A stretch of DNA of 64,000 nt from Patescibacteria group bacterium (GCA_016784175.1 JADHVC010000001.1:5567-69566); one strand, 5' to 3'; positions 9,571-64,000 are shown, counted from the first letter of the stretch. Program-made: numbers and translations. The notes: generated from the letters alone by a model not told the origin.

Positions 9571-10431
9571 ATGATCGAAATTCAAACCCTAAAAAAAAAG
9601 ATAGCTGGTGTAGTGATTATTTATAATCCGCCAAAAAGCTTAATATGCAATATTAATTCCTACATCAACTTTGTCGATACCTTAATTATAATTGACAACT
9701 CTCAACACAGGAATAAAGCAATAATTAATGAATTAAATCAAAATAGAAAAATCATTTACAATTTTAGCAATAAAAACATTGGAATAGCAAAGGCACTAAA
9801 CAAAGCAGCTAACATAGCAATACAAAAAAAATACAACTGGCTTCTTACAATGGATCAGGACAGTAAATTTAACCCAGGAGCACTTAACCTGATGCTTGAG
9901 TTTATACAAAAAAATAACACTGAAACTGTTGGGATAGTGGCACCCATACAAAAAAATAAACTTGAAAAATATCCAACTCACACTGCTGAGTATGAAGAAA
10001 TTCTAAGCAGCATGAACTCTGGAAACCTCATCAATCTAAATATATATAAAAAAACTGGACCATACCTCGAAAAATTATTTATAGATTATGTTGATCACGA
10101 ATATTGTCTAAAAATAAAATCTTATGGATACAAAATTATTCGAATCAATAATGCAATACTATACCACAACCTAGGTAACTTAAAAAAACATGCTTCTTTC
10201 TTAGTCACAAACCACAATGAACAAAGAAGATTTTTCATTACCTTAAATAGACTATACGTAATGAATAAATACAAAAAACAATTTCCGATTTTTTATAATA
10301 TCTGTCTACGCGCTTCAATAAGAGAGTTTGTCTTTATCATATTATTTGAAAATAGAAAATATCTTAAAATAAAAAATATTATAAAGGCAATTATCCATTA
10401 TAATAAAAATTTTAAACTTGATGCAAAATAA
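9571..10431 (+). CDS. GT2 family glycosyltransferase
   Basis: GVVIIYNPPKSLICNIN...LIIIDNSQ...LLTMDQDS is a GT-A fold with DxD motifs. It is the only plus-strand gene in the block. Confidence 0.65.
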   Translation: MIEIQTLKKKIAGVVIIYNPPKSLICNINSYINFVDTLIIIDNSQHRNKAIINELNQNRKIIYNFSNKNIGIAKALNKAANIAIQKKYNWLLTMDQDSKFNPGALNLMLEFIQKNNTETVGIVAPIQKNKLEKYPTHTAEYEEILSSMNSGNLINLNIYKKTGPYLEKLFIDYVDHEYCLKIKSYGYKIIRINNAILYHNLGNLKKHASFLVTNHNEQRRFFITLNRLYVMNKYKKQFPIFYNICLRASIREFVFIILFENRKYLKIKNIIKAIIHYNKNFKLDAK

Positions 10432-10455
10432 TGCACTCCAAAACTAAACACTCCG

Positions 10456-12933
10456 CTATTTTCTATTCAATAAAATTTGTTTCAACCAAAGTAAATAGTT
10501 AATCTCATTTTTTATTCCGGAAGTCACAATCTGATCATCCATTATAAGTAATTCTTTTCTATTAACTACCTCGTCGGGATAATAATTCAAAACCTTTTCA
10601 ATATATTCGTTAGCTTCCAATATTCTCTCCTGACCGATCAATAAATTTATCAAATTTATATAGTACCTGGGTCTGTACTTATCTAAAGATATTGCGCGCT
10701 TAAATTCATTTTCAGCTTTTAGTGTATTACCATCTGTCTCGAATAATTTTCCACTTAACTCATAATTTAACGAATCACCCTCGTCGTGCTGTATCAAATA
10801 ATTAGCAATAGATCTTGACTCCGCCAACTTCATACTCCTCATATTTTGATCATCCATCTGAAGCCCAAGAGTATATTTTATTATTGCAAGCTCACGCAAA
10901 TATTTTACACTCAGTATATTAACTTTAACGGCTCGTTCTAAATATATTTCTGACTGCACATAATCACCCTGATGTTTATGTGCAACTCCTATATTAAAAT
11001 TATAGTAACTCATAGTTATAACTACGCCAACAACTAAAAATAAACATAACCCGACTAACAAATAAAATTTACCAATATTAATTATATTTATATTAGTATC
11101 TTCAGTGTCGACTTCTACAAAAACTGCATTACTCAACAAACCTAAATAAATCCAAAATATAAAATTATTAACTTGATAATGAGATCCAATATCTATAAAA
11201 TTATGCATCAAAAAAGCTAAAACACATAAATAGATTACTAAACATAAATCATCTTTCCTGCTTAATAAAAAACCATAATACAACATATACAATAAAAATA
11301 AAGCAAAGAAAACAAAATTCACAACCCCTACTTCACTAAGCAATTCTAAATACCAATTATGTGCATATTTTCCAGAACTTAAGGGGTTCACCTGATATTC
11401 CGGATAAGCCAAGCTGAATGTACCAAGCCCACTCCCAAACAATGGATAATTTGCAATTATATCAACAGCACCATTCCAATAATCCAAGCGTATATTTGCC
11501 GACACGTCCCCCACCCCAATACTCGACTCTTCTCGCTCTATGAAAGACGCTTTTGAACCTTTCATAAAATCAATTACACTAAAAAATATACCGATCGATA
11601 GAGTCACTAACACTAAACTAAAATATATATTTTTTAAATTAACTTTCTTAATTACGAATAAAAACAAACAAACAATTCCTCCACATAAAAATGCACCCCT
11701 CGACCCAGTTAAAATTAGTGCCGTGATATTTATTCCAGATAATAGAGCAAATAGAATTTTTCTAAAAAAATCTGTAGAAACAAATAAAAAATACAGGCCA
11801 ATAGGAGTCGTCAAAAGCAAAAAACTAGCGAATGGATTAGGCCAATAAAAAACCGAAGTAAGTCTATTATAACTGCCGCCAAGATAAATATCCAAACCAA
11901 CTAAACTAAGAGTCACAGAAATCAACAATAAAGCGAACAACAATATTTTTACATATCGTCTTCTAAGCCTCAAATGCATAAATATAAAATAAACAATACC
12001 AAAAAATAAATAGTAAAACCAATTAACAAGACTCACTAACAATGAACTTGAAAATGGTAAACTTAAAAATGTTAATAATAGAAATAACGACAACATACTC
12101 ATGGCCGTTAACTTCACACCAGCATGACTTGAGCTCACCACTTTATTATGAATCTTTATAAACAATCTAATTGGACATCTTAATAATTTCATAATATATA
12201 ACTGCACAACACCTAAGTGCTTTCTAAAATAGTAATCTTGTGAAACATAGTACAACTCTTTCTTTAAACTAAATATCTTTGAACTTCCTCCACCCAAATG
12301 TATTAAATGTACTGAAGGTAACACCACGCTCACAAACCCAGCAACATTCACTTTTTTACACAAATCAATATCCTCAAAATACATAAAAAATTTTTCATCA
12401 AAACCACCAACCATATCAAAAATAGATTTTCTAATTACTAATGCAGCACCTGTAACCCAATCGGTCTCAAAATATCCATTCCTACATTCACGTTTTCCTA
12501 CTTTAAACTTATTAGAAATTAAACTGAATATATTTGGAAAATCACCATATGCATGTGCCTGCTCACTTCCATCTTCAAGGATCAACTTTGGCAAGACAAT
12601 ACCCACCCCCTCATTAAATATAAATAATTCATCTATCTTTTCTAGAATGTTATCACTTACAATTGTGTCAGAATTTAAAAAAAACAAATATTTACCAGTA
12701 GCAATTTTTGACGCTTGATTATTAGCACATCCAAAACCAACATTTGTTTTATTACTTATTATCTTAACTTTATTAATAAATTTATCTTTAAAATACTCAA
12801 CACTTCCATCGCAAGAATTATTATCAACCAAAATAATTTCAAACATCCTTTCTGAACAATGTTTTAAAACAGAAATTATACAGTTCTTTGTTAACTCTAA
12901 TGTATTATAATTTACTATTATAATTGAAAACAT
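10456..12933 (-). CDS. fusion protein: N-terminal GT2, central O-antigen-ligase-like (Wzy_C) polytopic domain, C-terminal TPR repeats
   Basis: N-terminus MFSIIIVNYNTLELTKNCIISVLKHC...ILVDNNSCDGS is a GT2 domain. The middle has about 10 TM helices with a long periplasmic loop, the Wzy_C/O-antigen ligase architecture. The C-terminus has TPR-like repeats (YLERAVKVN..., ENEFKRAISLDKYRPRYYINLINLLIGQERILEANEYIEKVLNYYPD). Confidence 0.6.
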   Translation of the reverse strand: MFSIIIVNYNTLELTKNCIISVLKHCSERMFEIILVDNNSCDGSVEYFKDKFINKVKIISNKTNVGFGCANNQASKIATGKYLFFLNSDTIVSDNILEKIDELFIFNEGVGIVLPKLILEDGSEQAHAYGDFPNIFSLISNKFKVGKRECRNGYFETDWVTGAALVIRKSIFDMVGGFDEKFFMYFEDIDLCKKVNVAGFVSVVLPSVHLIHLGGGSSKIFSLKKELYYVSQDYYFRKHLGVVQLYIMKLLRCPIRLFIKIHNKVVSSSHAGVKLTAMSMLSLFLLLTFLSLPFSSSLLVSLVNWFYYLFFGIVYFIFMHLRLRRRYVKILLFALLLISVTLSLVGLDIYLGGSYNRLTSVFYWPNPFASFLLLTTPIGLYFLFVSTDFFRKILFALLSGINITALILTGSRGAFLCGGIVCLFLFVIKKVNLKNIYFSLVLVTLSIGIFFSVIDFMKGSKASFIEREESSIGVGDVSANIRLDYWNGAVDIIANYPLFGSGLGTFSLAYPEYQVNPLSSGKYAHNWYLELLSEVGVVNFVFFALFLLYMLYYGFLLSRKDDLCLVIYLCVLAFLMHNFIDIGSHYQVNNFIFWIYLGLLSNAVFVEVDTEDTNINIINIGKFYLLVGLCLFLVVGVVITMSYYNFNIGVAHKHQGDYVQSEIYLERAVKVNILSVKYLRELAIIKYTLGLQMDDQNMRSMKLAESRSIANYLIQHDEGDSLNYELSGKLFETDGNTLKAENEFKRAISLDKYRPRYYINLINLLIGQERILEANEYIEKVLNYYPDEVVNRKELLIMDDQIVTSGIKNEINYLLWLKQILLNRK

Positions 12934-47329: not shown

Positions 47330-48039
<710 letters not shown>

Positions 48040-48059
<20 letters not shown>

Positions 48060-48186
48060 AATCGGATTTCGCTATCATCTCGACCAATTGGTCAAATTTT
48101 ATTTTTGGCTCCCAGCCTAAAATATTTTTAGCCTTTGAATAATCACCCAACACCACGTTCACTTTAATAGTTAAAAAGAATACCAT
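48040..48186 (-). pseudogene. C-terminal remnant (about 40 codons) of an NDP-sugar 4,6-dehydratase (Gmd-like)
   Basis: The translation ..[37 protein letters not shown] matches the conserved C-terminus of GDP-mannose 4,6-dehydratase. It overlaps the fcl start. No upstream body is present. Confidence 0.5.
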
Positions 48187-48847: not shown

Positions 48848-48929
48848 ATTATTTCATTGACTTACAACTCTCTCACAATTATACTATTAATATAGTTAAA
48901 AAATCAAAAAAAATTAACATACGCACTAT

Positions 48930-49190
48930 ATGCTTGTTACAATAACAATAAGCAAGGGAGAAAAAAGAAAGAATATTGCATTAGTTAGTGCTGTTAGTTT
49001 ATTTATGGTTGTAATTATACTGTTTTGGGGGATAAATTTTAATAAAGGATTAGCTAGCGCTAATGACGAGCCTAGCTTACTTAACAATTTTGAAGAATCT
49101 AGTAATGGAATATACGAAGTAATATATACTTTTAAGAAAGATTATGAAAAGATAAAAGATAATCAAGAGATAATAGTCCCCGAACTATAA
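48930..49190 (+). CDS. small hypothetical membrane protein
   Basis: 86-aa ORF with one TM helix. Confidence 0.3.
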   Translation: MLVTITISKGEKRKNIALVSAVSLFMVVIILFWGINFNKGLASANDEPSLLNNFEESSNGIYEVIYTFKKDYEKIKDNQEIIVPEL

Positions 49191-49227
49191 CCAGAATAAT
49201 ATATTTAATAATAAATAACGAATAAAC

Positions 49228-51849
49228 ATGTCCGACAATAACGAAGAAAAAATAAATAACAAAGATGAAACAGGTGATGATATAACCAAAGATGAAATAA
49301 AAAAAGATGATACTGTAGCTGAAGCGGATATCAAAGATAACGAGGATAAAACAAAAGAGATTGTAGAAATAAACTCTAATATTGTTACAGAAAAAAAATA
49401 CACCGCTTTTGGTTTAGTTGAACCGCTCGCTATCACCGACGAAATGAAAAAAAGCTATCTCGAATATGCTATGAGTGTTATCGTCACTCGTGCTCTTCCA
49501 GACGTAAGAGATGGATTAAAGCCAGTACACAGAAGAATACTTTATGCTATGTGGACAGTTGGACTGAAAGCTAATGGTAAATTTAGAAAATCAGCTACCG
49601 TAGTCGGAGAAGTACTTGGTAAATATCATCCACATGGTGACTCTGCTGTTTATGATTCTATGGTAAGAATGGCACAAGATTTTTCAATGCGTTATCCATT
49701 AGTAAGGGGACAAGGAAATTTTGGCAGCATGGATGGAGACAGAGCAGCTGCTATGCGTTACACAGAAGCTAAGCTTTCGGCTATTTCTGAAGAATTGCTT
49801 TTTGATATAGACAAAGATACGATCGATTTTTCACCAAACTTTGATGGGTCAAACAAAGAACCAAAGGTCCTACCAGCCAAGCTTCCAAACCTATTATTAA
49901 ACGGCACTATGGGCATTGCAGTTGGAATGTCCACCAATATCCCACCACACAACTTAAGTGAATTAATTGATGCCATTACCTACCTAATCGATAAACCAGA
50001 GGCAACCATAGAAGAACTAGCAGAGTTTATCAAAGGACCTGACTTTCCTACTGCCGGCATTATCTATAACAAAAAAGACATTTTACAAACCTACATTACA
50101 GGAAGAGGTGGAATTGTGATGCGCGCAAAGACAGAAATCTATGAAACAAAAGAAGGTCGATTTCAAATCATCATTACCGAACTACCATATCAAGTTAATA
50201 AAGCCAATTTAGTAGAAAAAATTGCAGATTTAGTGCGCAACAAAAAAATTGAAGGCATTAAAGATTTGCGTGATGAGTCAGACAAAGAGGGCGTAAGAGT
50301 TGTTGTCGATTTAAAGAAGGATTGTTATCCAAAAAAGATACTTAACAGCTTATTTAAACACACTCAACTGCAAGACACCTTTCATGTAAATATGCTTGCT
50401 TTAATTGATGGATTGCAACCAAAAGTATTAACTCTCAAGTCAATCTTAGAAGAATATATTAAGCACAGAGAGGTAGTAGTTAAAAGAAGAGCTGAATTTG
50501 AGTTAAAAAAGGCCAAGGCACGCGCGCATATTCTAGAAGGATTAATGATAGCATTAAACAATATTGATGCTGTTATAGCCCTAATTAAGAAGTCAAAAGA
50601 TCGCGAAGAAGCAAAACTTGGCTTAATAAAACAGTTTAAGTTAAGTGAAATCCAGTCGATTGCAATTCTTGAGATGAGATTGCAAAGTCTTGCGAACTTG
50701 GAACGATTACGAATCGAAAATGAACTAAAAGAAAAAAATGAAATAATTAAAGAACTTGAAGGAATCCTAGCTTCTCGAGAAAGAATTCTTGGAATAATCA
50801 AAGAAGAAATCAAAGAAATCAAAGAAAAATACGGTGACGAAAGACGAACACAAATTATATCACGAGGCGTAAAAGAATTTGGCATAGAAGATCTTGTACC
50901 TAACGAAGAAACAATGATCGTTATGACAAGAGACGGATACATTAAACGCTTCCCTACTGACACATTTAAAGTACAAGGCAGAGGTGGCAAAGGTGTTGTA
51001 GGACTCTCAACTAAAGAAGAGGATTCTGTTGAGTTCATGTTCACCACTATGACACATACTGACATATTATTCTTTACTACTCGCGGAAGAGTATTCCAAT
51101 TAAAAGCTTTTGAAATCCCTCAAACATCAAGAACTGCCAAAGGACAAGCAATTGTAAATTTCTTGCAATTGCCAGGCAATGAGAAAGTAACTTCCATCTT
51201 ACCTCTCGATAAAATCAGCAACAAAAACTACCTATTCTTTGCAACTGAAAAGGGCTTGGTTAAAAAAGTTAAACTAGAAGAATTTTCAAATGTAAGAAGA
51301 TCAGGTCTAATAGCAGTAAAGATCAAAGACGATGATAAATTAATTTGGTCTAAACCAAGCTCTGGAAAAGACCACATTATCCTTGTAACAGCTAAAGGGC
51401 AAGCCATAAGATTCCCAGAAGAAGACATACGATCAATGGGAAGAACAGCAGCTGGCGTAACAGGCATCAAACTTAAAAAAGATGACTATGTGGTAGGCAT
51501 GGGAATAATTAACACCAATCCAGAAAAACTTAAAAAATATGAAGTATTTTCAATTTCTGAACAAGGCCTTAGCAAGAGAACAGCCCTTAAAGAATATAAA
51601 AAACAAGGTAGAGGTGGTAGTGGCCTAAAGACAGCAAAAGTAACTAGTAAGAGTGGTAATCTTATCAATGCCTTCGTAATAAACTCCGAAAAGATGCAAG
51701 ACAAAGATTTAATTATTATATCTACTGGAGGTCAAGTTATTAGACTCGCCTTTAAAAATGTACCGCAATCAGGTAGAGACACTCAAGGAGTAAAATTAAT
51801 GCGCTTTAAAAACACTGGAGATAAAGTAGCTTCTCTTATCTGGACATAA
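49228..51849 (+). CDS. gyrA: DNA gyrase subunit A
   Basis: The region around [28 protein letters not shown] has the conserved structure. The catalytic Tyr region and C-terminal beta-pinwheel repeats are present. A roughly 60-aa acidic/Lys-rich N-terminal extension precedes it. Confidence 0.9.
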
Positions 51850-52577: not shown

Positions 52578-52675
52578 TAAATTAAACTAAAATAAACTAA
52601 TTAGCGAATAACTTTTTAGCCATATCCTGCAACACATTGACTTTTGACCAATTTTTGATAAAATATTAAACATAA

Positions 52676-53290
52676 AATTTAAATTTCAAAAAAATACATT
52701 ATCTTTTTGAAATATTAAAAATTTTTTGTAAAAAGTTTTAAACATAAAGAACATACATTTTTTGAAAATTTTATGGCAGTAGAGCTTCGCTCGCTATAAA
52801 ATTTCAAAAAATACCTTATGTTTTTGAAATATTAAGAACTTTTTTGTAAAAAGTTTTAAGCTAAAATATTAAGAACTTTTTTGTAAAAAGTTTTAAGCTA
52901 AAATATTAAGAACTTTTTTGTAAAAAGTTTTAAATCAGTGCTCGTAGCTCAGCTGGATAGAGTGCTTGGCTTCGGACCAAGAGGTCGCAGGTTCGAATCC
53001 TGCCGGGCACACAACATTTGAAATATTAAGAACTTTTTTGTAAAAAGTTTTAAACCTAAAAAGCATACTTTTTTTTAAGTTTTATGGCGGTAGAGCTTCG
53101 CTCGCTATAAAATTTCAAAAAATACATTATGTTTTTGAAATATTAAGAACTTTTTTGTAAAAAGTTTTAAACCTAAAAAGCATACATTTTTTTAAGTTTT
53201 ATGGCGGTAGAGCTTCGCTCGCTATAAAATTTCAAAAAATACCTTATATTTTTGAAATATTAAGAACTTTTTTGTAAAAAGTTTTAAAAT
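52676..53290 (+). repeat. array of tandem AT-rich repeats (about 118-bp long units and 37-bp short units) carrying promoter-like modules TTGAAA-N17-TAAAAA around the tRNA genes
   Basis: The module ttgaaatattaagaacttttttgtaaaaagtttta(a/g) occurs at least 7 times, in intact or degenerate form. The long unit (..aacctaaaaagcatacatttttttaagttttatggcggtagagcttcgctcgctataaaatttcaaaaaatac..) recurs 3 times. Confidence 0.7.
52938..53011 (+). tRNA. tRNA-Arg (anticodon TCG)
   Basis: Folded manually into a 74-nt cloverleaf. 7-bp acceptor stem, anticodon loop cuTCGga, T-loop TTCGAAT. No encoded CCA. Confidence 0.8.
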
Positions 53291-53364
53291 GGCGGCGTAG
53301 CTCAGCTGGTTAGAGCGAAGGAATCATAACCCTTAGGTCAGAGGTTCGAGTCCCCTCGCCGCTA
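53291..53364 (+). tRNA. tRNA with CAT anticodon (Met; initiator, elongator or Ile-lysidine not resolved)
   Basis: 74-nt cloverleaf with acceptor GGCGGCG/CGCCGCU, anticodon loop auCATaa, T-loop TTCGAGT. One mismatch in each of the anticodon and T stems. Confidence 0.7.
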
Positions 53365-53494
53365 CATTAAAATATAAGTCCTCTTTTTGGTAAATAAAGT
53401 TTTCAATGATGTACAGCCCGATCGTTATGCTCGTTTAGTATAGGATCATCATTAAAACAAAACCAAAAAGAGTTCTTTTAAATTTTATAGCATT

Positions 53495-53570
53495 GCCCTT
53501 ATAGCTCAGTTGGTAGAGCAGACGCCTCTTAAGCGTAAGGTCGCAGGTTCGAGTCCTGCTGGGGGCACCA
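53495..53570 (+). tRNA. tRNA-Lys (anticodon CTT), CCA encoded
   Basis: Cloverleaf with anticodon loop cuCTTaa, T-loop TTCGAGT and a 3' ACCA. Confidence 0.8.
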
Positions 53571-53648
53571 AAGAAAAAAAACACCCTTTCATTGAACTGT
53601 ACCCCGTTTAGTAGACACGGGTAAAAAACAACTAAGTAATTTGTAAAA

Positions 53649-53689
53649 GATGATTTCGATATTGCACCGAAGTCATCTTTTTTAAATCC
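53649..53689 (+). terminator. intrinsic terminator downstream of the tRNA cluster
   Basis: agatgatttcg-atattgcac-cgaagtcatct hairpin followed by tttttt. Confidence 0.5.
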
Positions 53690-53758
53690 CATTGATAACG
53701 TGCATTATTATAATACTCTATGTATTCCTGAACCATCAAATTAAGCTCATTAAAGGTT

Positions 53759-54166
53759 TTGCATTCTTTGAAAGAAATGAATTATTATCAGCAGAACGAA
53801 TTTGCTAAAGCAGCGGAGGCATATAGACAAGCGCTGGTAATTAAACTTAATGATATTGATATTAATTTTACTCTAGTTGGGGCAGAGTCGGGTGCTAAGC
53901 AGTATCAAGCAGAAAGCAGAACGTTGGACAAGATTTGGCAGATTCAAACCATGGGAATCAAGATGGCGCCATACTATTATTATCGAGCCGAGATATTAGT
54001 CGCGGGAGAGAAATACAATGATGCGCGGGAACAGATTGATAATGCTATAGTGGCCGATAGTAGCCATTCGAAGTATTATCGTTTAAAAATAGACATCCTA
54101 ACTAAGCTAGGTAGATTAAGGGAGGTGAATGCGGTAAAGAAAGAATTAGCAGAGCTGGAGAAGTAG
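53759..54166 (+). CDS. hypothetical TPR-like protein
   Basis: 135-aa ORF, helical-repeat-like (AEAYRQAL.., YYYRAEILVAGEKYNDAREQIDNAI). Higher GC than the core. Confidence 0.3.
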   Translation: MHSLKEMNYYQQNEFAKAAEAYRQALVIKLNDIDINFTLVGAESGAKQYQAESRTLDKIWQIQTMGIKMAPYYYYRAEILVAGEKYNDAREQIDNAIVADSSHSKYYRLKIDILTKLGRLREVNAVKKELAELEK

Positions 54167-54401
54167 GGATTGTCGGTATATTGCCACCACCTTTAAAGCA
54201 TGGCAAGAACTACGTAAATATGGCTATTATAACCTATAGGACGATTCAAAAAGATTGAGGCGATGGATTTTACGGTTAAAGATTTTTCGATGCTCATGGG
54301 GGGCTAGGCGGGCTAGTTTTTGGTAGTATTGAGCGAGAAACTGGTGTAACTTTATAGTATTAATGAAGACTGATTAATTTACATTAATGGTAGTTTAATC
54401 G

Positions 54402-56011
54402 TTGCTTATTGTTTTAAAGGGTGGTAACTTTATATTAAAGTTAAAAAATTATGATTCTATGACTAAAGTAAAAGAGAAAAAACAATCCACCTCTGCCAAT
54501 ATCGGTTTTGAAGAAAAGCTTTGGGCAACTGCTGATAAAATGCGTAATAATATGGATCCGGCTGAATATAAGCATGTTATTCTAGGTCTCATTTTTTTAA
54601 AGTATATTTCCGATTCATTTGAAGAGTTGCATGTTAAATTAAAAAATGATTCGGAAGGACTGGACGATCCGGAAGATAAAGATGAATATAAAGCTGAAAA
54701 TGTTTTTTGGGTGCCAAAAGAAGCTCGTTGGTCATATATTACAATTAACGCTAAAAAACCGGAGATTGGAAAGTTAATTGATGATGCCATGGTTTTAATC
54801 GAAAAAGAGAACCCTAATTTAAAAGGTGTGTTACCTAAAATTTATGCTCGTCATGATTTAGACAAAGTTAAACTTGGAGAAATAATCGACACAATTGGCA
54901 CTATCGGCATGGGAGATAAAGAAAGTAAGTCAAAAGATATGCTTGGTCGTATTTATGAATATTTTATCGGTCGATTTGCTGGAGCAGAAGGCAAAGGCGG
55001 AGGAGAGTTTTTACGCCACAATCAGTAGTTAAATTATTAGTCAGCATGCTTGAGCCATATAAAGGTAGAATTTATGATCCTTGTTGTGGTAGCGGAGGCA
55101 TGTTTGTGCAAAGTGAAAAGTTTATTGAAAGCCACGGTGGTAACAAAGACGATATCGCTGTTTATGGTCAGGAGTCAAATCCAACCACTTGGAGATTGTG
55201 CAAAATGAATTTAGCTATTCGCGGTATTGCTGGGAACATTGGATCAATTCATGCCGATAGTTTTCGTAATGATTTACATAAAGATTTGAAAGCAGATTTT
55301 ATCCTTGCTAATCCACCATTTAACATAAGTGATTGGGGCGGAGAACAGCTTAAAGATGATGTGCGTTGGAAATATGGCATGCCACCAACCGGCAATGCTA
55401 ACTATGCTTGGATAGAGCATATGATCCATCACCTTTCACCAACAGGAATCGCTGGTTTTGTTTTGGCTAATGGCTCTCTTGCGTCTAATACTTCAGGCGA
55501 AGGAGAGATTAGAAAAAAACTTATTCAAAATGGTTTAGTGGACTGCATTGTCGCTATGCCACCACAACTTTTTTATACTACTCAAATTCCGGCTTGCCTT
55601 TGGCTTGTTTCTCGTGATCGCTATGATCATAAACTTCGCGATCGACATAAAGAAATATTGTTTATAGATGCTCGTAAAATGGGTACTATGGTAACTAGAA
55701 AGAATCGCGAATTAACCGATGAAGATATCGCTAAAATTTCTAGTACTTATCATAGCTGGCGTAGCATTAACGGTAAATATGAAGATGTAAAAGGATTCTC
55801 TAAGGCGGCGAACATGGAAGAAGTAGAAAAGAATGGCTTTGTTTTGACTCCAGGTCGTTATGTTGGATCGGATTATGTAGAAGAAGATGACGAAGTGTTT
55901 GAAGAAAAAATGAAAAGATTGACCGGTGAATTGTCAGGACAGTTTAAGCAATCAAAGGAGTTGGAGGAGAGGATAAAGAAAAATTTAGAAAGCATTGGTT
56001 TTAAGATATAA
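54402..56011 (+). pseudogene. hsdM: type I restriction-modification methyltransferase subunit HsdM, disrupted by a frameshift in a T5 run (annotated as two ORFs, 54402-55028 and 55046-56011)
   Basis: An HsdM N-terminal domain (..LWATADKMRNNMDPAEYKHVILGLIFLKYISD) is followed by ..GGGEF. The correct continuation [31 protein letters not shown]...NPPFN is in the -1 frame from the T-run at 55008-55012. One extra T would restore EFFTPQS. Confidence 0.7.
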
Positions 56012-56014
56012 AAT

Positions 56015-56665
56015 ATGTGGTATCTATATTTAGATGAAAGTGGAGATCTGGGTTTCGATTTTGTCAATAAAAAGCCGTCAAAATTTTTTACGGTTACTAT
56101 TTTAGCGTTAAGTTGTCACGATGCTAATCGCCAGTTGATTAAAGCAGTCAAAACCACAATTCGTCATAAGTTAAACAAATCAAAGAATCAAAAAAGAGTA
56201 GCGAAAGAACTAAAAGGTACTGGCACAACACTGGACGTCAAGAAGTATTTTTTTGAAAAGGCTAAGAATGTTAAATTTGGAGTTTACTCTATTACGCTAA
56301 ACAAGAAACGTGTTTTTGAAAAGTTATCTAAAGACAAGTCAAGAGTTTACAACTATATTGCCAGACAAGTACTTGATCAAATTCCTTTTGAAAAAAATAA
56401 TAGTGATCGTGTTGAATTGATTTTAGATAAATCTATGGCCAAACCGGAAATAAAAGAATTTAATGCTTATATAAGACGCCAACTTGAAGGTCGCTTGTCT
56501 CCGAATGTGCCGCTTGATATTTATCATTGGTTATCACATGAGAATTATGGCCTACAGGCAGCGGATTTGTTTTGCTGGGGAATATTCCAAAAATATGAAC
56601 GACAGAATAAGGACTGGTTTAATGTTTTTGCAGATAAGATATTGTTTGATGAACAATTTTTATAA
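56015..56665 (+). CDS. DUF3800 family protein embedded between hsdM and hsdS
   Basis: N-terminus MWYLYLDESGDLGF is the hallmark YxDESG motif of DUF3800. It starts 4 nt after the hsdM stop. Confidence 0.6.
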   Translation: MWYLYLDESGDLGFDFVNKKPSKFFTVTILALSCHDANRQLIKAVKTTIRHKLNKSKNQKRVAKELKGTGTTLDVKKYFFEKAKNVKFGVYSITLNKKRVFEKLSKDKSRVYNYIARQVLDQIPFEKNNSDRVELILDKSMAKPEIKEFNAYIRRQLEGRLSPNVPLDIYHWLSHENYGLQAADLFCWGIFQKYERQNKDWFNVFADKILFDEQFL

Positions 56666-56843
56666 ACAAAAAACCCCTTACGGGGAAGCAACTTTATAGG
56701 TTTGTTGTGTCCAGACTATAGCCAACCGATGGATGGGAATATCTAGAACAACCTATAAAAGATTTACGCTTATTTATAATATAGCATAAAATGATATAAA
56801 AAATCAATAGTTATCCACAGATGGAGAGTAAAAATACAAAAAT

Positions 56844-58085
56844 ATGGCTAATAACCAAACAAAATTTAAAGAAACAGAAATAGGAACCATCCCAGAGGAA
56901 TGGGATGTTTTTGATATTCAAACTGTTTCTGATGTTGTCGGTGGTGGTACTCCATCAACAACAAATAATAATAATTTTAACGGTGAGATTCCGTGGATAA
57001 CACCGAGAGACCTGTCTTCATATCAGGATCGGTTTATTTCCCGTGGTGAGAGATGTATTTCAGAGGAAGGACTTAACTCAAGCAACGCTAAATTATTACC
57101 GGTCAATACAGTTTTATTGACGACAAGAGCCCCTGTTGGGTATCTTGCTATCGCAAAAAATGAAGTTACTACCAATCAGGGATTCCACAGTCTAATTCCA
57201 AACAATAAGACAAATAGTCTTTTTCTTTTTTACCTTTTGAAAAATAATGTTGAAAAACTTATCAGCAATGCTTCTGGTAGTACTTTTCAAGAACTTAATG
57301 GCAAAACACTAAAGTCATTAGAGTTTGCTTTTCCAAGAATTAGCGAGCAAGAACAAATCGCCGAAATCCTTTCCTCTCTTGATGATAAAATAGAACTTAA
57401 TCGTAAAATAAATGCTAACTTAGAAAAGATAGCGAGTGCTTTGTTTAAGAGGTGGTTTGTTGATATTGGCGATGAATTGCCGGAGAGGTGGAAAATGGGA
57501 ACGATTGGAGATTTTGGAAAAGTTAAATCAGGTTTCGCATTTAAGGGAGAATGCTTTAATGATCAAGAGGGAGTGCCGGTTATTAAAATTAAAAATATTA
57601 TTGAGCCAAATGTTGATTTAAATAATGTTGATTATGTTTCTGATGAATTAGTGAACAAAAAAGCAAAAGAGTTCATTCTGGAAGCAGGAGATATTTTAAT
57701 CGCTATGTCCGGCAATACTACCGGCAAGATTGGTATTATGCCTAAGACAAAAAATGATTATGTTTTAAATCAGCGGGTCGGCAAATATTTTTTAAAAGAT
57801 AAAAATAATTTAGGCTATGTATATTTCTATTTAAGAAGCGGCGACATTCAAGAAAATATAATTCAGGCCGCATATGGCAGCGCGCAACCAAATATTAGTC
57901 CAAGTATTCTAGAAAATATAAAAATTATTATTCCCGATAATGCAGCATTAAACACTTTTAATAACGTGGCAAATAATGCTATAGAAATAATTGTAAGGAA
58001 CAATTTTGAAATTAATGTTTTAACAGAACTAAGAGATTCTATTTTGCCTCGATTAATGAGTGGAAAAATAAGAGTAAAAATATGA
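56844..58085 (+). CDS. hsdS: type I restriction-modification specificity subunit HsdS
   Basis: Two target-recognition domains separated and followed by conserved HsdS repeats (..LPEEWDV..., central ..LFKRWFVD.., C-terminal ..LRDSILPRLMSGKI). Confidence 0.85.
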   Translation: MANNQTKFKETEIGTIPEEWDVFDIQTVSDVVGGGTPSTTNNNNFNGEIPWITPRDLSSYQDRFISRGERCISEEGLNSSNAKLLPVNTVLLTTRAPVGYLAIAKNEVTTNQGFHSLIPNNKTNSLFLFYLLKNNVEKLISNASGSTFQELNGKTLKSLEFAFPRISEQEQIAEILSSLDDKIELNRKINANLEKIASALFKRWFVDIGDELPERWKMGTIGDFGKVKSGFAFKGECFNDQEGVPVIKIKNIIEPNVDLNNVDYVSDELVNKKAKEFILEAGDILIAMSGNTTGKIGIMPKTKNDYVLNQRVGKYFLKDKNNLGYVYFYLRSGDIQENIIQAAYGSAQPNISPSILENIKIIIPDNAALNTFNNVANNAIEIIVRNNFEINVLTELRDSILPRLMSGKIRVKI

Positions 58086-58920
58086 ACAATCCAATAAAAC
58101 AACACACGGTGCCTAATTTTTATTTAAAAAACTTTGCAGATAAAAATTTATGTGTTTGGGTATGTGATAAAAAGAAAAAGGAACTCAGGAAGCAACCAAC
58201 CAAAGACACGGCTATAATTAATGATTATTACACATTTATAAATAGTTCGAATGAAAAAGATTATAAAGTTGAAAAGGAGTTATTTGCAAGCACGATAGAA
58301 AAAGAAATGAGTGCCATACAAAATAAAATTTTAAATAATTTGGAATATGATGATAATGATAAAAAAATAATTTGCAGATTTTTAACATTTCAATTTTCGC
58401 GAACAACAAAATTCAAGGAAGATTTTGAAAAAATTTATACAAGCATCTTAGGAGAAACTTTAAATAATAAATTTTGTAATGAAAAAATAAAAAGAATTGC
58501 GTGAGTCCGCATAAAAAATTGCATCTAAGAGCAATGGCTAAATTTTATGAAAAATTTTATAATGCTTTTTTGAAATTAAACTTTTTATTTTTAATAACTA
58601 GTGGAAAGGGCGTTGATCAATTTATTACATCTGATAATCCAGTTATTTTATTTGGCTTTGAAAAGTTAAATGGAAAATTTTATAATTTTAAGACTATTTA
58701 TTTCCCTTTTTCGCCTTCAATAGCATTGTTACTAAATGATAAATGCTTAGGAATAAAAAATATTAATAAACAAAAAACCGAATTATTTAATAGCACAACA
58801 ATAAAACAATCTGATCAGTATTTAATATCTAATAGTCGGAAACTATTATTAAATATAAAGTTAATTACAAAAAGTTACGATCAGGAAAAAATTAAAAAAA
58901 TGATAAGTGAAATTTTATGA
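58082..58920 (+). CDS. DUF4238-like protein, present as two overlapping ORFs (58082-58504 and 58501-58920) embedded between hsdS and hsdR
   Basis: ORF1 begins ..[11 protein letters not shown], the N-terminal DUF4238 signature. ORF2 contains ITSDNPVIL, the central DUF4238 motif. The ORFs overlap by GTGA. The start overlaps the hsdS stop (ATGA) and the end overlaps the hsdR start (ATGA). Confidence 0.5.
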
Positions 58921-61900
58921 CCCACAACTACTACGAATCCGATCTTGAACAAGCTACATTGGAATGGCTGGAAGAGATTGGATATAAAACAATTTATGGA
59001 CCATCCATTGATCCGGAGGCAGAAGATGGAAAGGCAGAAAGAAAAAACTATTCCGAGGTTATTTTAGTTGACCGCTTGAAGTTTGCGATAGAAAGAATTA
59101 ATCCGAATATACCGATAGAGGCACAGCAAGATGCAGTTGATAAAGTTTTAGGCTTGCCTTGGTTAAAGCCGAATTTGGTAGAAAATAATTACGCAATGCA
59201 CAAAATGCTGACCGATGGCGTTGATATTACATATAAAGATAAGGATGGCTTAATGCGTGGCGATAAAGTTTATCTAGTGGACAAAAATAATTTAGATAAT
59301 AATGATTGGTTGGCGGTTAATCAATTTACAGTCAAAGAGGATAATAAAACTCGCAGACCGGATGTTGTTATTTTTATTAATGGCTTGCCACTTGCCATCA
59401 TTGAACTTAAAAATCCGGCAGATGAAAATGCAACCATTATCCAAGCCTATAATCAAATTCAGACTTACAAACAAGATATTCAAACATTTTTTACATATAA
59501 CAGTTTAGTTGTAGTTAGTGATGGCGTTAATACACGCATTGGATCTTTAACTGCCAACGAAGAACGCTTTATGAAATGGCGGACGATTGACGGCTCTGAC
59601 TTAGCTCCTGCCTCTATTCCTGAAATGGAAGTTTTAATTAAAGGCGTATTTGATAAAAAAAGAATTTTAGATATTCTTTTAAATTTTATTATCTTTAATA
59701 CTGACGGAGAAAATACTATTAAAATTTTAGCCGCTTATCACCAATACCACGCTGTAAACAAAGCTGTTATTCAAACAATAGAAGCTACCAAAGAAGATGG
59801 CGACCGGCGTTGCGGAGTGGTTTGGCATACCCAAGGCAGTGGGAAGTCTTTAACTATGGTATTTTATGCCGGTAAGCTCATACAAGTTTTAGATAACCCA
59901 ACTATTGTAGTTTTAACCGATAGAAATGATCTAGATGAGCAATTATCTACTACTTTTTCTTTATGCCAAGATTTAATCAGACAAACTCCGGTTCAAGCAG
60001 AAAGCAGAATGAATTTAAAAGAACTGTTGAAAGTAGCTTCCGGCGGAGTTGTCTTTACTACTATTCAAAAATTTTCTGAAGGTGACGAAATGTTGTCTAA
60101 TAGAAAAAATATAGTAGTTTGTGTAGATGAAGCACATCGATCACAATATGATTTTATGGATGGCTTTGCTCGTCATATGCGTGAAGCCTTGCCCAACGCC
60201 TCGTTTATCGGATTTACCGGCACGCCAATTGAATTAACCGATGCAAACACCAGGGCGGTATTTGGAGAATATATCGATGTTTATGATATTGCTCAAGCAG
60301 TAGAAGATAAAGCGACAGTTCCAATTTATTACGAAGCACGTTTAGCTAAAATTCAATTATTGGAATCAGAAAGACCAAAGATTGATCCAAAGTTTGAAGA
60401 ACTAACAGAGGGAGAAGAAGCGGATAAAAAAGAAAAGTTAAAAAGCAAATGGGCCAAGCTTGAAGCGATGGTTGGTTCAGAAAAAAGAATTGGCCTTATC
60501 GCTCAAGATATTGTAAGCCATTTTAAGCAAAGGTCAGATGTGATTAATGGTAAGGGCATGATTGTAACCATGAGTCGTCGTATTGCAGTTGAACTATACG
60601 ATGAGATTATAAAATTGAGACCGCATTGGCATAGTGATAATGACGAGAAAGGATTTTTAAAGGTAGTAATTACAGGATCGGCAACTGACCCGCTTAATTT
60701 TCAAAAACATATTAGAAGTAAACAAGCGAGAAAAGATTTAGCTAAGCACATGAAAAAACCCAGTAGCGATTTAAAACTGGTGATTGTGCGTGATATGTGG
60801 CTAACTGGTTTTGATGTACCTAGTTTGCATACAATGTATTTAGATAAACCAATGCAAGGTCATGGTTTGATGCAAGCGATTGCCAGAGTGAATAGAATTT
60901 ATAAAGATAAACAAGGTGGTTTAGTGGTTGATTATCTTGGAATTGCCCCAATGTTAAAAGAAGCTCTAGCCTATTACACTAATAGCGGTCGCAACAAACC
61001 AACTATTCCACAAGAGGAGGCAGTATCGGTTATGTTAGAAAAGTACGAAGTTGTTAAGGGTATGTATCATAATTTTGATTATTCAGATTTTTTTAGCAAT
61101 AAAGCCTCAAAAAGAACCAGAGTAATCGCTAGTAGTATTGATTTTATTCTTGGTCTCACAAATGGCAAGAAAAGATACGTTCAAGTTGTTACCGAGCTGT
61201 CCTATGCTTTTTCTTTGTCTGTTCCAAATGAAGAGGCTATTAAAATTAGAGATGAGGTGGCGTTTTTTCAAGTTATTAAAGGAGCAATTGTTAAAATGGA
61301 AGATTTTGAAAAACAAAACAAGAAAGATATCGGCATTCAAGATAGCTATGATCAAGCGATAAAACAAATTATTTCTCATGCTATTACTTCAGATGAGGTG
61401 GTTAATGTTTTTACTGCCGCTGGCTTAAAAAATCCAAATGTTTCTGTTTTATCAGATGAATTTTTAGAGGAAGTAAAGAATCTGAAATATAAGAATTTGG
61501 CCTTAGAAATATTGAAGAAATTATTGAACAATGAGATTAAAACTATGACAAAAAAGAATCTGATTAAATCCAGGTCATTTGCTAAATTACTTCAAGATAT
61601 CATCCGTAAATATCAGAATCAAACGATTGATGCGGCTCAAGTTATTTATGAATTAGTAGAACTGGCTAAGAAGATTAAGAATGAAGAGACTCAAGGAGAG
61701 TCTTTAGGTTTATCAGTTGAAGAAGTGGCTTTCTATGATGCTTTAATTGAAAATGAAAGTGCTGTATTAGAATTGGGAGACGATGTATTAAAACAAATTG
61801 CTAGAGAGCTAGTATCTATGCTGAGAAAGAACACCACCATTGACTGGACATTAAAAGAAAGTATCAGAGCAAAACTCAGACTCTATGTTAAAAAGTTATT

Positions 61901-61997
61901 AAAGAAATATAAATATCCGCCAGATAAACAAGAAAATGCCACGCGGACAGTATTGGAGCAAGCCGAAGTATTATGTAAGGATTGGAGCGGAAAATAG
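58917..61997 (+). CDS. hsdR: type I restriction enzyme endonuclease subunit HsdR
   Basis: 1026 aa. N-terminal nuclease region, SF2 helicase motifs ([24 protein letters not shown]) and a C-terminal HsdR helical domain. Confidence 0.9.
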
Positions 61998-62342
61998 GAT
62001 TTAAAAATTAAAATAAATAATATGACAATCTTAGAAAATTCAATTTTTATTACCACAGAATCCTCAATTACTTTTGGAGCCACTACTATACCAACCTAAT
62101 TTAAACAATCAGATAATCTGTGCGTAAAATCAGAAAGACAATTTTCAGAAGTGTCGTAAAAATTAGTCTGAAATAATAGCTTTGGGATTGAGCATTGTAT
62201 TTTTAGATAATTTTCTTTAAATCCGCCTTTTGCGTCGGCGGTCAAATGCTAGTTTGACACAAATAGAATATTCAAAAATCATGGATCATATATTCTCAAT
62301 ATGAGCTAATAAAGCATCTAGACAACCATTAATTTAAAAAAA

Positions 62343-62384
62343 ATGCAACTTGTATTATGCAACTCGTATTATGCAACTCGTATT
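62343..62384. repeat. three tandem copies of a 14-bp unit (atgcaactYgtatt)
   Basis: atgcaacttgtatt atgcaactcgtatt atgcaactcgtatt lies in the intergenic region downstream of hsdR. Confidence 0.6.
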
Positions 62385-62571
62385 AGTCACAACATATTGG
62401 ACAATTTACATTTCTAGTCAAAATGGCTTTGGATTTTTTTGCGATTAAAACAAAAATAGAAATTTATTAACAAAGAAAAAACCGCCAGAGGTCCATTTGT
62501 AGACTTAGCGGTGTTTTGGTTAGACTCAGATTTTTAACCTATTATTTCTTGCAGTATTAATGCGAGTTGAA

Positions 62572-63081
62572 TTACTTTGGCACAGTACGCCAAACGCCAC
62601 ATGGCTTACCATTCATATACGTTTGGGTTAGATACATATTTGTGATAGTAATATGTCCGTCTTTTCGGGCTAACCCATATTTAATATTCCTGATTGTCGC
62701 GGTCATAGTGGACTCATTGCCAACTTTAGCAGAAACAAATTGAATTGATTCTCCTTTAAACACATGACGTTCTTTTTGCACATATTGCTCAAATTCAGCA
62801 CGTGACATTGGTATTATTCTTGGACATGGTCCATCGCATGTACTCCTCATCTCTTCTACTGAAAGAAAATCTAAACCTTCTTTCGGTATTGACGACATAA
62901 ACTCTGTAACCTGACCTGTTCCTTGATGTTGATACAAGGAAATTTTTTCTACAATTATTGAGCAAGCATTAATTGCCGTTTCCTCTTTAGACATTTTTTG
63001 TGGTTTGCCAATGCTTGTCGCACAGCCACAGAGCAAAATGGTAAGTAATAAGGTTAATGGTAAAAAACGTTTTTTCCACAT
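62572..63081 (-). CDS. lipoprotein of unknown function
   Basis: Signal peptide with a lipobox (LLTILLCGC|A). 169 aa. Confidence 0.5.
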   Translation of the reverse strand: MWKKRFLPLTLLLTILLCGCATSIGKPQKMSKEETAINACSIIVEKISLYQHQGTGQVTEFMSSIPKEGLDFLSVEEMRSTCDGPCPRIIPMSRAEFEQYVQKERHVFKGESIQFVSAKVGNESTMTATIRNIKYGLARKDGHITITNMYLTQTYMNGKPCGVWRTVPK

Positions 63082-63136
63082 TGCAATTCTCCCGTTAACG
63101 TCAAAGATTTTACTATTAAAGTCTTTGTTATTAGTT

Positions 63137-63745
63137 TTATAGCAAAGGTATCAAAACCTCCTTTGCTCTTGGCCCTAAAAGCCAAATTTCTTCGCTTCCG
63201 TGTTCATGCTTAAAAACCAACTCCCAATTCTCTAGCTTTTTTAATGCCCTATCCAATAATATATCTGTCAGTCCGCTTATCTCATTTAAAATTTCATTTT
63301 TCGAGCTAGCTCGGTTTTTAGCGATAAGCTGCAATATCTCATGCATATAAGGACGATTCATCACATACGCATCATCAGCCTCAAATTTGCAATCTCTTGC
63401 GGCCAATAAATCCTCCAACATATCCAGCAACATCGCCCAGCGAAATCCGTAGTGTATATCAAAGCTATCTAAAGCGCTACGTCGAGCTGGATCACTTATA
63501 ACAATATCCAAGTGAAGAGCAAGCGAATGTAACTTATCAGTAGAGGCATGTCGCTTTAAAAGCAAACTAACGTTGGTTCTATAGGCAAAATCCAATACTT
63601 TAGCCCCGCACTCGCTCCATTTCTCTATATTCTCAATATGAGCTAATAAAGCATCTAGAGAATCCATTAAAGTGAAACAAAGAATTATAGGATCATCACG
63701 ATCTAAATCAAACGCTACCTTTTTATCGACATCGGGTTTAATCAT
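63137..63745 (-). CDS. hypothetical protein
   Basis: 202-aa ORF. An internal 33-bp segment is duplicated in the intergenic region at 62289-62322. Confidence 0.3.
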   Translation of the reverse strand: MIKPDVDKKVAFDLDRDDPIILCFTLMDSLDALLAHIENIEKWSECGAKVLDFAYRTNVSLLLKRHASTDKLHSLALHLDIVISDPARRSALDSFDIHYGFRWAMLLDMLEDLLAARDCKFEADDAYVMNRPYMHEILQLIAKNRASSKNEILNEISGLTDILLDRALKKLENWELVFKHEHGSEEIWLLGPRAKEVLIPLL

Positions 63746-64000
63746 TTCTATTTCCCCTTTTTATTTTAACCGTGAATAAGAGTGAAAACTGACTATTTAA
63801 AGAACATCTTTCAGCGGTCTTCTCATCTGCATGTATAGACTGATACTTCACTGCATTTTTCAGTATTCGCGAAGCTTGATTTAATGCAAATAATTACCTG
63901 CTTACCATTTGCGACTTTTTTATTGCTCCTTTAATTGTTAAAGAACAGCGCATAAATAACTCTTAAATTAATTATAGACAATTTACACAAATTTGTCAAT

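Follow-up and report, generated by a model that had tools for sequence, protein, structure and literature searches.

Introduction

Short repeats of several kinds are known from the intergenic regions of bacteria. The repetitive extragenic palindromes (REP) of enterobacteria and pseudomonads are grouped in mosaic clusters (bacterial interspersed mosaic elements, BIME), and REP doublets forming hairpins (REPINs) are mobilised by REP-associated tyrosine transposases (RAYTs). The Correia elements (NEMIS) of Neisseria and other miniature inverted-repeat transposable elements (MITEs) such as ERIC and RUP are transcribed into long hairpins that RNase III can cut. Tandem repeats of 178 bp, each with a real copy of a tRNA 3' end, are found in the tyrT operon of Escherichia coli, the source of rtT RNA (Rfam RtT). 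Candidate phyla radiation (CPR, Patescibacteria) bacteria have small, streamlined genomes and, to our knowledge, their intergenic repeat families are essentially undescribed; full-text literature searches on Patescibacteria (for MITEs, and for promoters, intergenic regions, repeats and tRNA) returned nothing on such elements. Here we describe a repeat that occupies positions 52671-53290 of a 64,000-nucleotide stretch of the genome of a Patescibacteria group bacterium (GCA_016784175.1, JADHVC010000001.1:5567-69566; this whole stretch is called the window), where it surrounds two genes of a tRNA operon.

The locus is an ordinary tRNA-Arg/tRNA-Met/tRNA-Lys operon of a CPR bacterium related to Candidatus Falkowbacteria, and the repeat family in it is previously undescribed, within a familiar class of bacterial repeats. 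We favour, with moderate confidence, the view that it is a hairpin repeat of the REP/BIME/MITE kind that is specific to its lineage, is transcribed together with the operon and has multiplied through slippage between its modules. The repeat has probably colonised the leader and the first spacer of the operon and would not constitute a new device for tRNA expression.

The elements recall REP/BIME clusters in being 30-40-bp imperfect palindromes that are intergenic and occur singly (as in the relative L041, see below) or in composite clusters of variable size; they would also share with them co-transcription with the neighbouring genes and the formation of RNA hairpins. In contrast to REP/BIME, the modules within an array are all in direct orientation and none alternate, they are extremely A/T-rich, few loci are known so far, and no RAYT gene was seen here, no genome-wide RAYT search having been made. 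The composite elements are similar to Correia elements in that both are imperfect palindromes of about 100-160 bp, intergenic, found in either orientation and with promoter-like hexamers at their ends; however, no clear terminal inverted repeats separable from the internal palindrome and no duplicated target site could be discerned here, and head-to-tail arrays that share one module are atypical of MITEs. With the BOX elements of Streptococcus pneumoniae (boxA-boxB(n)-boxC) the repeat has in common a modular build, a variable number of tandem internal modules and a strong predicted structure, but the sequence is unrelated and the module logic is another. The tyrT repeats are likewise tandem repeats within a tRNA operon, co-transcribed, released by processing and probably derived from unequal recombination, whereas in the present case similarity to tRNA is at chance level, there is no match to Rfam RtT and the family also occurs outside tRNA operons. 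Tandem clusters of small RNA genes with a promoter for every copy, such as LhrC1-5 of Listeria, are comparable in their head-to-tail units of about 100 bp and in the promoter-like sequence and conserved hairpin of each unit; unlike these, the units described here have no convincing -10 hexamer or terminator, and some copies have lost the -35 hexamer or its spacing.

Results

Anatomy and copy number of the repeat

The basic piece of the repeat is a module of about 35 bp with an A/T-rich palindrome, P, while the composite piece consists of a module, a variable segment X (~30 nt), a GC-containing core Y (TATGGCGGTAGAGCTTCGCTCGCTATA), an A-rich segment Z and a second module. By pattern search, the 35-nt module TTGAAATATTAAGAACTTTTTTGTAAAAAGTTTTA is found exactly at 52824, 53018, 53135 and 53252 and with two mismatches at 52861 and 52898 (six matches at up to three mismatches, compared to 0.00 expected from 100 shuffles), and a seventh copy, shorter by 1 nt, starts at 52707. 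Tandem Repeats Finder delimits a 37-bp array (2.9 copies, 100% match, 52827-52933) and a 117-bp array (2.3 copies, 98% match, 53017-53288).

Homology to the unit begins at about 52671, with a partial unit that opens the array and consists, on direct reading, of the end of a hairpin 3' arm and an A-rich Z (52671-52706); the segment 52682-52741 matches positions 96-155 of the unit profile (nhmmer). Next come unit 0 (52707-52823; nhmmer E 6e-37), a diverged 117-bp unit composed of the 1-nt shorter module, X, the hairpin core TATGGCAGTAGAGCTTCGCTCGCTATA and Z, and three tandem 37-bp modules (52824-52934), each with the P palindrome AACTTTTT-TGT-AAAAAGTT. Downstream of tRNA-Arg lie unit 1 (53018-53134, 117 bp; its hairpin H1 at 53070-53122) and unit 2 (53135-53251, 117 bp, 98% identical to unit 1; H1 at about 53187-53239), and a terminal module (53252-53288) closes the array 4 nt before tRNA-Met. 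All of these features are on the + strand. The three units headed by the module are those of the original prediction, made from the sequence of the window, which had put their length at roughly 118 bp. The same prediction had placed a 37-bp module about 13 nt before tRNA-Arg and tRNA-Met; a module does adjoin both genes, but the gap is 11 nt for tRNA-Arg and 10 nt for tRNA-Met when counted from the end of the TAAAAA hexamer, and 5 nt and 4 nt, respectively, when counted from the end of the module itself. Similarly, the predicted threefold occurrence of a promoter-like module in tandem before tRNA-Arg holds for the number of modules and not for their promoter likeness: only the first tandem copy starts with TTGAAA, while copies 2 and 3 read CTAAAA and thus have no -35-like hexamer.

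The repeat elements themselves are real, since independent ENA and Logan assemblies contain, with identical sequence, unit 0 and at least two other units as well as the tandem modules and both tRNAs. An independent assembly of the same organism (L001) has two copies of the 37-bp module, not three, and a 100-N gap within the 117-bp array, and two other contigs (L002 and L003) stop inside the first unit, which implies that the copy number is either polymorphic or unresolved by short reads.

Predicted structure of the units

Eight units from three genomes, a small sample, were aligned (alignment A1) and analysed by RNAalifold, which predicts a hairpin at P of the module and a long hairpin, H1, whose stem joins the T-run of X to the A-run of Z and whose tip is the core Y. 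H1 has a stem of about 24 bp with a conserved 4-nt bulge, a 3-nt loop and a GC-containing tip. With the explicit structure laid on A1, 97.9% of the cells pair. Four pairs are changed on both sides, versus 0.8 in column shuffles (none of 500 as high) and 0-1 with slid partners; two G.U pairs are invariant, and the differences between the cores of the window and those of L007 (see below) are confined to the bulge and the loop. Over these analyses, 4-5 pairs carry such two-sided changes. The predicted RNA fold of H1 is far better on the + (module-sense) strand (-16.6 kcal/mol, z -4.4, 0/200 shuffles) than on the - strand (-9.6 kcal/mol, z -2.0). The P hairpin is weak (-5.3 kcal/mol, z -1.6) and is followed by only four U; the lengths of the T-run and A-run that make up its arms covary across the genomes ((6,5), (7,6), (7,6), (8,7)), and these changes shift the spacing of the hexamers yet keep the palindrome. 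The element as a whole is an imperfect palindrome whose reverse strand matches its own profile (E 3e-7), and neither discrete terminal inverted repeats nor a duplicated flank was seen at five junctions. Taken over eight sequences from three genomes, these patterns are suggestive of structure, rather than sequence, being the conserved feature of the units.

The same element in other genomes

The 22-nt palindrome core was searched for exactly in genome, metagenome and viral contig collections, and further relatives were fetched through homologues of GyrA and of the neighbouring methyltransferase and then searched with the unit profile. The family was found at six loci in four genomes (the window, two loci in L007, two in L031 and one in L041/L042), and all copies are intergenic. 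The genome collection yielded one true relative, L007, along with four chance matches. L007 is a metagenome-assembled genome from another study in which small T4SS_pilin-family genes lie on either side of the four units; these occupy two loci and are laid out as three modules and two full units with a fourth unit 1.2 kb off, and the 8 kb contain no tRNA. Compared with the window, the modules of L007 show 100% identity, its core has three differences, and 181 bp can be aligned at 90%. An apparent inverted pair, some 15 nt long and noticed by eye, flanks two of the L007 units on the minus strand (1365-1405, CTAGTCTTATGCGTA, the long X of the first unit, and 1120-1140, TGCGTATAAGACTAG, after the last module).

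In L031 (GyrA 77% identical), gyrA, the methyltransferase gene, tRNA-Arg, tRNA-Met and tRNA-Lys are syntenic with the window, and the same Arg-Met spacer holds one module-X-Y-Z-module element as a complete reverse complement. The second L031 copy (L031b) lies antisense between two minus-strand genes and has a 27-bp insertion between TTGAAATATT and CTAAGAAC; the two L031 copies are oriented away from, or against, the genes beside them. In L041/L042 (methyltransferase 71% identical, same gene order), the Arg-Met spacer of 42 nt is made up of one module, with AAGAAA in place of TTGAAA, and no element is present between the promoter and tRNA-Arg, which fits a gain in the lineage of the window, although this is not a clean empty site. 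In L047 (methyltransferase 69% identical), tRNA-Arg alone is followed by an unrelated MITE-like palindrome (1061-1230) with inverted ends of about 22 bp (ATACTCAATCCCTAAACTAATT / AATTAGTTTAGGAATTGAGTAT), tRNA-Met and tRNA-Lys being absent from the contig. A further sequence of L031, TTGAAATACTAAGAATTCTTTTTACAGAAAATTCTTAGACAT (10133-10177), stands directly before tRNA-Lys; its first 15 nt are as in the module and are followed by a different palindrome (CTAAGAATT...ATTCTTAG), and it may be a diverged module that keeps the palindrome and not the sequence.

The profile search found no element in L032, L033/L034, L035/L036, L037, L038 and L044, which are non-syntenic or devoid of it, and no further copy in the 10 kb to the right of the window (L039). 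The metagenome collection gave 17 loci and the viral collection 5; the single 22-mer matches among them are due to chance, as 3-9 of 21 upstream bases match the module flank, and the one in L012 falls within unrelated DNA that does not look like a repeat and has no tRNA close by. Two additional scans of viral contigs with degenerate patterns of the element, and a distant blastn search of phage records, gave no match.

A probable promoter upstream of the array

In the original prediction, one of the readings offered for the modules was that of stacked promoters that boost tRNA transcription. A strict sigma-70 scan, which demanded T at position 6 and A at position 2 in the -10 hexamer, passed a sole site on the + strand of 52600-53400, namely TTGACT, 16 nt, TAAAAT at 52637-52664. 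No module passes, TAAAAA and its TATAAA variants being without T at -7. Module-quality matches (-35 with at least 5/6, -10 with at least 4/6 and A at position 2) number 153 in the rest of the window on the two strands, that is, 1.1-1.3 per kb per strand. The 52637 site has a TG one base before its -10 (extended -10), a motif that three syntenic genomes share, and both L031 and L041 keep TTGACTTTT...TGnT(A/T)AAAT upstream of their tRNA-Arg. The distance from the end of the promoter motif to tRNA-Arg is 19 nt in L041, while in the window 273 nt of repeats intervene. One predicted operon promoter at 52637-52664, with the repeats inside the transcript, is the simplest and a likely reading of these sequences.

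As to the module hexamers, TTGAAA (5/6 to TTGACA) is present in five of the seven window copies, CTAAAA in two and AAGAAA in L041. TTGAAA belongs to a third palindrome (ATTTCAAAAA ... TTTTTGAAAT), of which it forms the 3' arm, and P has TAAAAA as its own 3' arm; on balance, we regard the apparent -35 and -10 hexamers as palindrome arms and not as selected promoter hexamers. Stacked promoters are disfavoured by the missing T at -7, the background level of such matches and the loss of TTG in two of the three tandem copies, and further by the inversion in L031, the 27-bp insertion in one copy, the absence of a -35 in L041 and the conserved canonical promoter motif upstream.

The operon and its surroundings

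ARAGORN and Rfam identify tRNA-Arg (TCG; 52938-53012; Rfam tRNA 69.1 bits), tRNA-Met (CAT; 53291-53365, identical in L031) and tRNA-Lys (CTT; 53495-53570), all on the + strand, with the repeats around the first two. In the tRNA(CAT) at 53291-53365 there are A.C mismatches in the anticodon stem and the T stem, the same as in L031, and in the L041 tRNA(CAT) the T-stem pair is restored to A-U; this tRNA may be an elongator tRNA-Met or a lysidine-modified Ile2 tRNA. The GyrA encoded upstream places the organism in the Patescibacteria; its nearest non-self matches are 77-78% identical, and many are labelled Candidatus Falkowbacteria. The array and the tRNA bodies hold only open reading frames (ORFs) of 20-43 amino acids, none of them credible; an 85-amino-acid minus-strand ORF (53435-53692), outside the array, overlaps tRNA-Lys and looks spurious.

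The Met-Lys spacer (53366-53494, + strand) is a separate 129-nt imperfect palindrome outside the unit family, its sequence being unrelated to the 117-bp unit; its RNA fold is predicted at -28.2 kcal/mol (z -4.84, 0/200 shuffles), and 53458-53491 bears a weak inverted resemblance to segment Z. The Met-Lys spacer of L031 has a different long palindrome. Every spacer of the operon thus holds a hairpin element.

Upstream of the operon are gyrA and an S-adenosylmethionine (SAM) methyltransferase gene, and downstream are genes for a TPR protein and a type I restriction-modification system. tRNA-Lys, the last gene of the operon, borders a variable island. In the window and L039, the DNA from 53570 to 64000 and beyond encodes the TPR protein, the type I restriction-modification system, DUF3800 and DUF4238 proteins and an SNF2 helicase, up to MamF/PPDK; in L031, tRNA-Lys is followed by an intact large serine recombinase gene (10212-11810), and in L041 by recombinase remnants (11205-12516) and then PPDK. 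This pattern fits a role of tRNA-Lys as an integration site. The suspicion that the locus is an unstable, recombinogenic spot beside the restriction-modification island was borne out, in that the repeat copy number varies by assembly and the DNA after tRNA-Lys differs entirely among relatives. Some genes of the window are interrupted: hsdM is split into two ORFs, 54402-55028 (HsdM_N) and 55046-56011 (N6_Mtase), by a possible frameshift or as a pseudogene; the DUF4238 gene is likewise in two ORFs (58082-58504 and 58501-58920), and an epimerase/GDP-mannose-dehydratase gene (47330-48120), intact in L031 (3569-5522), is in three short ORFs and is probably a pseudogene. Upstream of gyrA, at about 48850-49230, gene orientation and GC skew flip (the skew turns from negative to positive at about 49.0 kb) in a small divergent intergenic region, which may be an origin or an effect of divergent operons. 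The skew flip at 49 kb led us to consider an origin or iteron reading, an idea dropped with DnaA boxes at 25 versus 20.9 expected, with no enrichment or cluster.

Discussion

We propose that transcription of the operon starts from the conserved extended -10 site (52637-52664), in which case the repeats would be co-transcribed in sense within the tRNA precursor, fold into hairpins and be discarded as the tRNA ends mature. The repeats would be selfish or near-neutral passengers, perhaps with a REP- or Correia-like effect on the processing or stability of the RNA. Replication slippage, or else unequal recombination, between the identical modules on either side of every unit may form and resize the 117-bp and 37-bp arrays, which would account for the composition of every array (n units plus one module), the 98% identity of units 1 and 2, the 100% identity of the 37-mers and the disagreement between assemblies. 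The element may also be capable of moving to new loci.

Several observations weigh against this proposal. Neither a target-site duplication at the termini nor a transposase or RAYT partner came to light, RAYT genes not having been searched genome-wide, as 74 kb of this genome were covered. The family is known from four genomes and about six loci only among those fetched, and about 74 kb of the window's own genome hold one locus, so that the term 'dispersed' rests on L007 and L031; the 100% identity of the modules of L007 and the window could, moreover, reflect close kinship. In four of the six loci the module is directed at a gene downstream, from which a short and regular distance separates it; the A-rich Z would be suitable as an UP element; and operon transcription in L031 would not make the strand favoured by folding; these three features fit an element with its own promoter.

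Such a promoter is the premise of the alternative that survives best, in which the module is a sigma-70-type promoter and the units are tandem small-RNA genes, each giving a transcript of about 80-117 nt that contains H1 and ends at the next P hairpin and UUUU, while the final module of an array would serve the neighbouring tRNA or pilin gene as well. TTGAAA, exactly 17 nt and TAAAAA are indeed combined in five of the seven window copies, with TTGAAA-15/16-TATAAA variants in copies of L007 (L007c) and L031 (L031a), an A-rich, UP-like Z lies upstream, and the distance from the module to what follows is 4-5 nt at two tRNAs and about 45 nt at a pilin ATG that has a Shine-Dalgarno sequence. H1 folds much better on the module-sense strand, with its G.U pairs invariant, and in L031, where the element is antisense to the operon, the favoured strand could come only from a promoter of its own. 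Yet the -10 is without the near-invariant T at -7 and the hexamers match at background density, TTG is missing from tandem copies 2 and 3 and from L041, the 27-bp insertion of L031b separates the hexamers, and the run-length changes alter the spacing and preserve the palindrome. The terminal module of L031 would fire antisense into tRNA-Arg, the P hairpin with its four U is a weak terminator candidate, and no Rfam family matches. We consider this account, as a whole, unlikely, though worth keeping in view. A bolder version, to which we give still less credence, is that the 117-bp unit is a self-contained small structured RNA gene of a Falkowbacteria-like CPR lineage, transcribed apart from its neighbours from its own atypical A/T-rich promoter (the module) and with its tandem copies kept, in which the bulged hairpin (GGC-NGWA-GAGY-UUY-RCUC-GCU on a long A-U stem) would serve as a protein- or RNA-binding platform. 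The better fold of the sense strand, the invariant G.U pairs and the antisense position in L031 are compatible with it.

It is very improbable that the array is a substrate of site-specific recombination, i.e. an invertible switch or recombinase target with the P modules as crossover sites. The element is in opposite orientations in the same spacer of the window and L041 on the one hand and L031 on the other, palindromic modules bracket every unit, and a large serine recombinase gene adjoins tRNA-Lys in L031. However, no recombinase gene is adjacent in the window or L007, the serine recombinase is placed at the tRNA-Lys end, as for an island integrase, and the L031 copy is a full reverse complement that includes the asymmetric TTGAAATAYTAAG outside P, and is not the product to be expected of an inversion between the two P sites. 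A comparison by hand with a degenerate consensus of the Xer dif site gave only about 19 of 28 positions and was dropped.

The original prediction also suggested that a promoter-plus-tRNA cassette was duplicated repeatedly and that the tRNA body decayed in some units to GGCGGTAGAGCTTCGCTCGCTA, a core said to resemble the 5' part of tRNA-Met. On direct reading, GGCGG and TAGAGC do recall the 5' end and D-arm of tRNA-Met, and the best local alignment of the core to any tRNA is an 8-mer, GGTAGAGC, common to the core and tRNA-Lys (p about 0.04 before correction for three tRNAs). Aligned to tRNA-Met, however, the core or the whole X-Y-Z of the window copies has a Smith-Waterman score at chance (p 0.10-0.18 versus shuffles), as have the homologous cores of L007 and L031 (p 0.29-0.76). 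No tRNA matches lie inside the units, neither with the Rfam covariance model at E<=1 nor with ARAGORN, which finds only the three intact tRNAs; apart from these, Rfam at E<=1 gives only spurious plant miRNA and plastid matches far below threshold, and no RtT. The same core is present between pilin-type genes without a tRNA and in inverted orientation, and it is one half of the conserved hairpin with compensatory changes. The resemblance therefore did not hold, and we regard a decayed tRNA as scarcely credible. Readings of the core as a K-turn or a T-arm were inspected and do not fit.

It is just as hard to believe that the tandem array was created in assembly from a short palindromic repeat: the copy number does vary by assembly, with one N-gap and two contigs that stop in the repeat, but identical elements are present in the independent ENA and Logan assemblies, and unrelated assemblies from other studies have the same architecture. 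Lastly, the 37-bp period is near the 36-nt unit of tandem interspaced guide RNA (TIGR) systems, which are reported in CPR bacteria and whose arrays have two alternating 8-12-nt repeats, variable 9-nt spacers and an adjacent Nop-domain Tas gene (PMC12045711), but a guide-RNA array of the TIGR or CRISPR type can practically be dismissed, as the three 37-mers are 100% identical and thus leave no variable spacers, the 80-nt 'spacers' between modules are conserved and not unique, and the flanking genes encode the SAM methyltransferase and the TPR protein, with no Nop-domain or cas gene adjacent.

A hairpin repeat in the leader and first spacer of the operon, the reading that we prefer, is at present a useful correction rather than a discovery, and a modest curiosity. 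The repeat family mimics promoters and tRNA fragments well enough to mislead annotation, and it breaks short-read assemblies at a conserved locus. The spacers of the tRNA operon harbour hairpin elements beside what may be a site of island integration. If the hairpins turned out to be signals for RNA processing or stability, or the module an atypical promoter, the family would offer a first handle on RNA processing or promoter architecture in this uncultured lineage.

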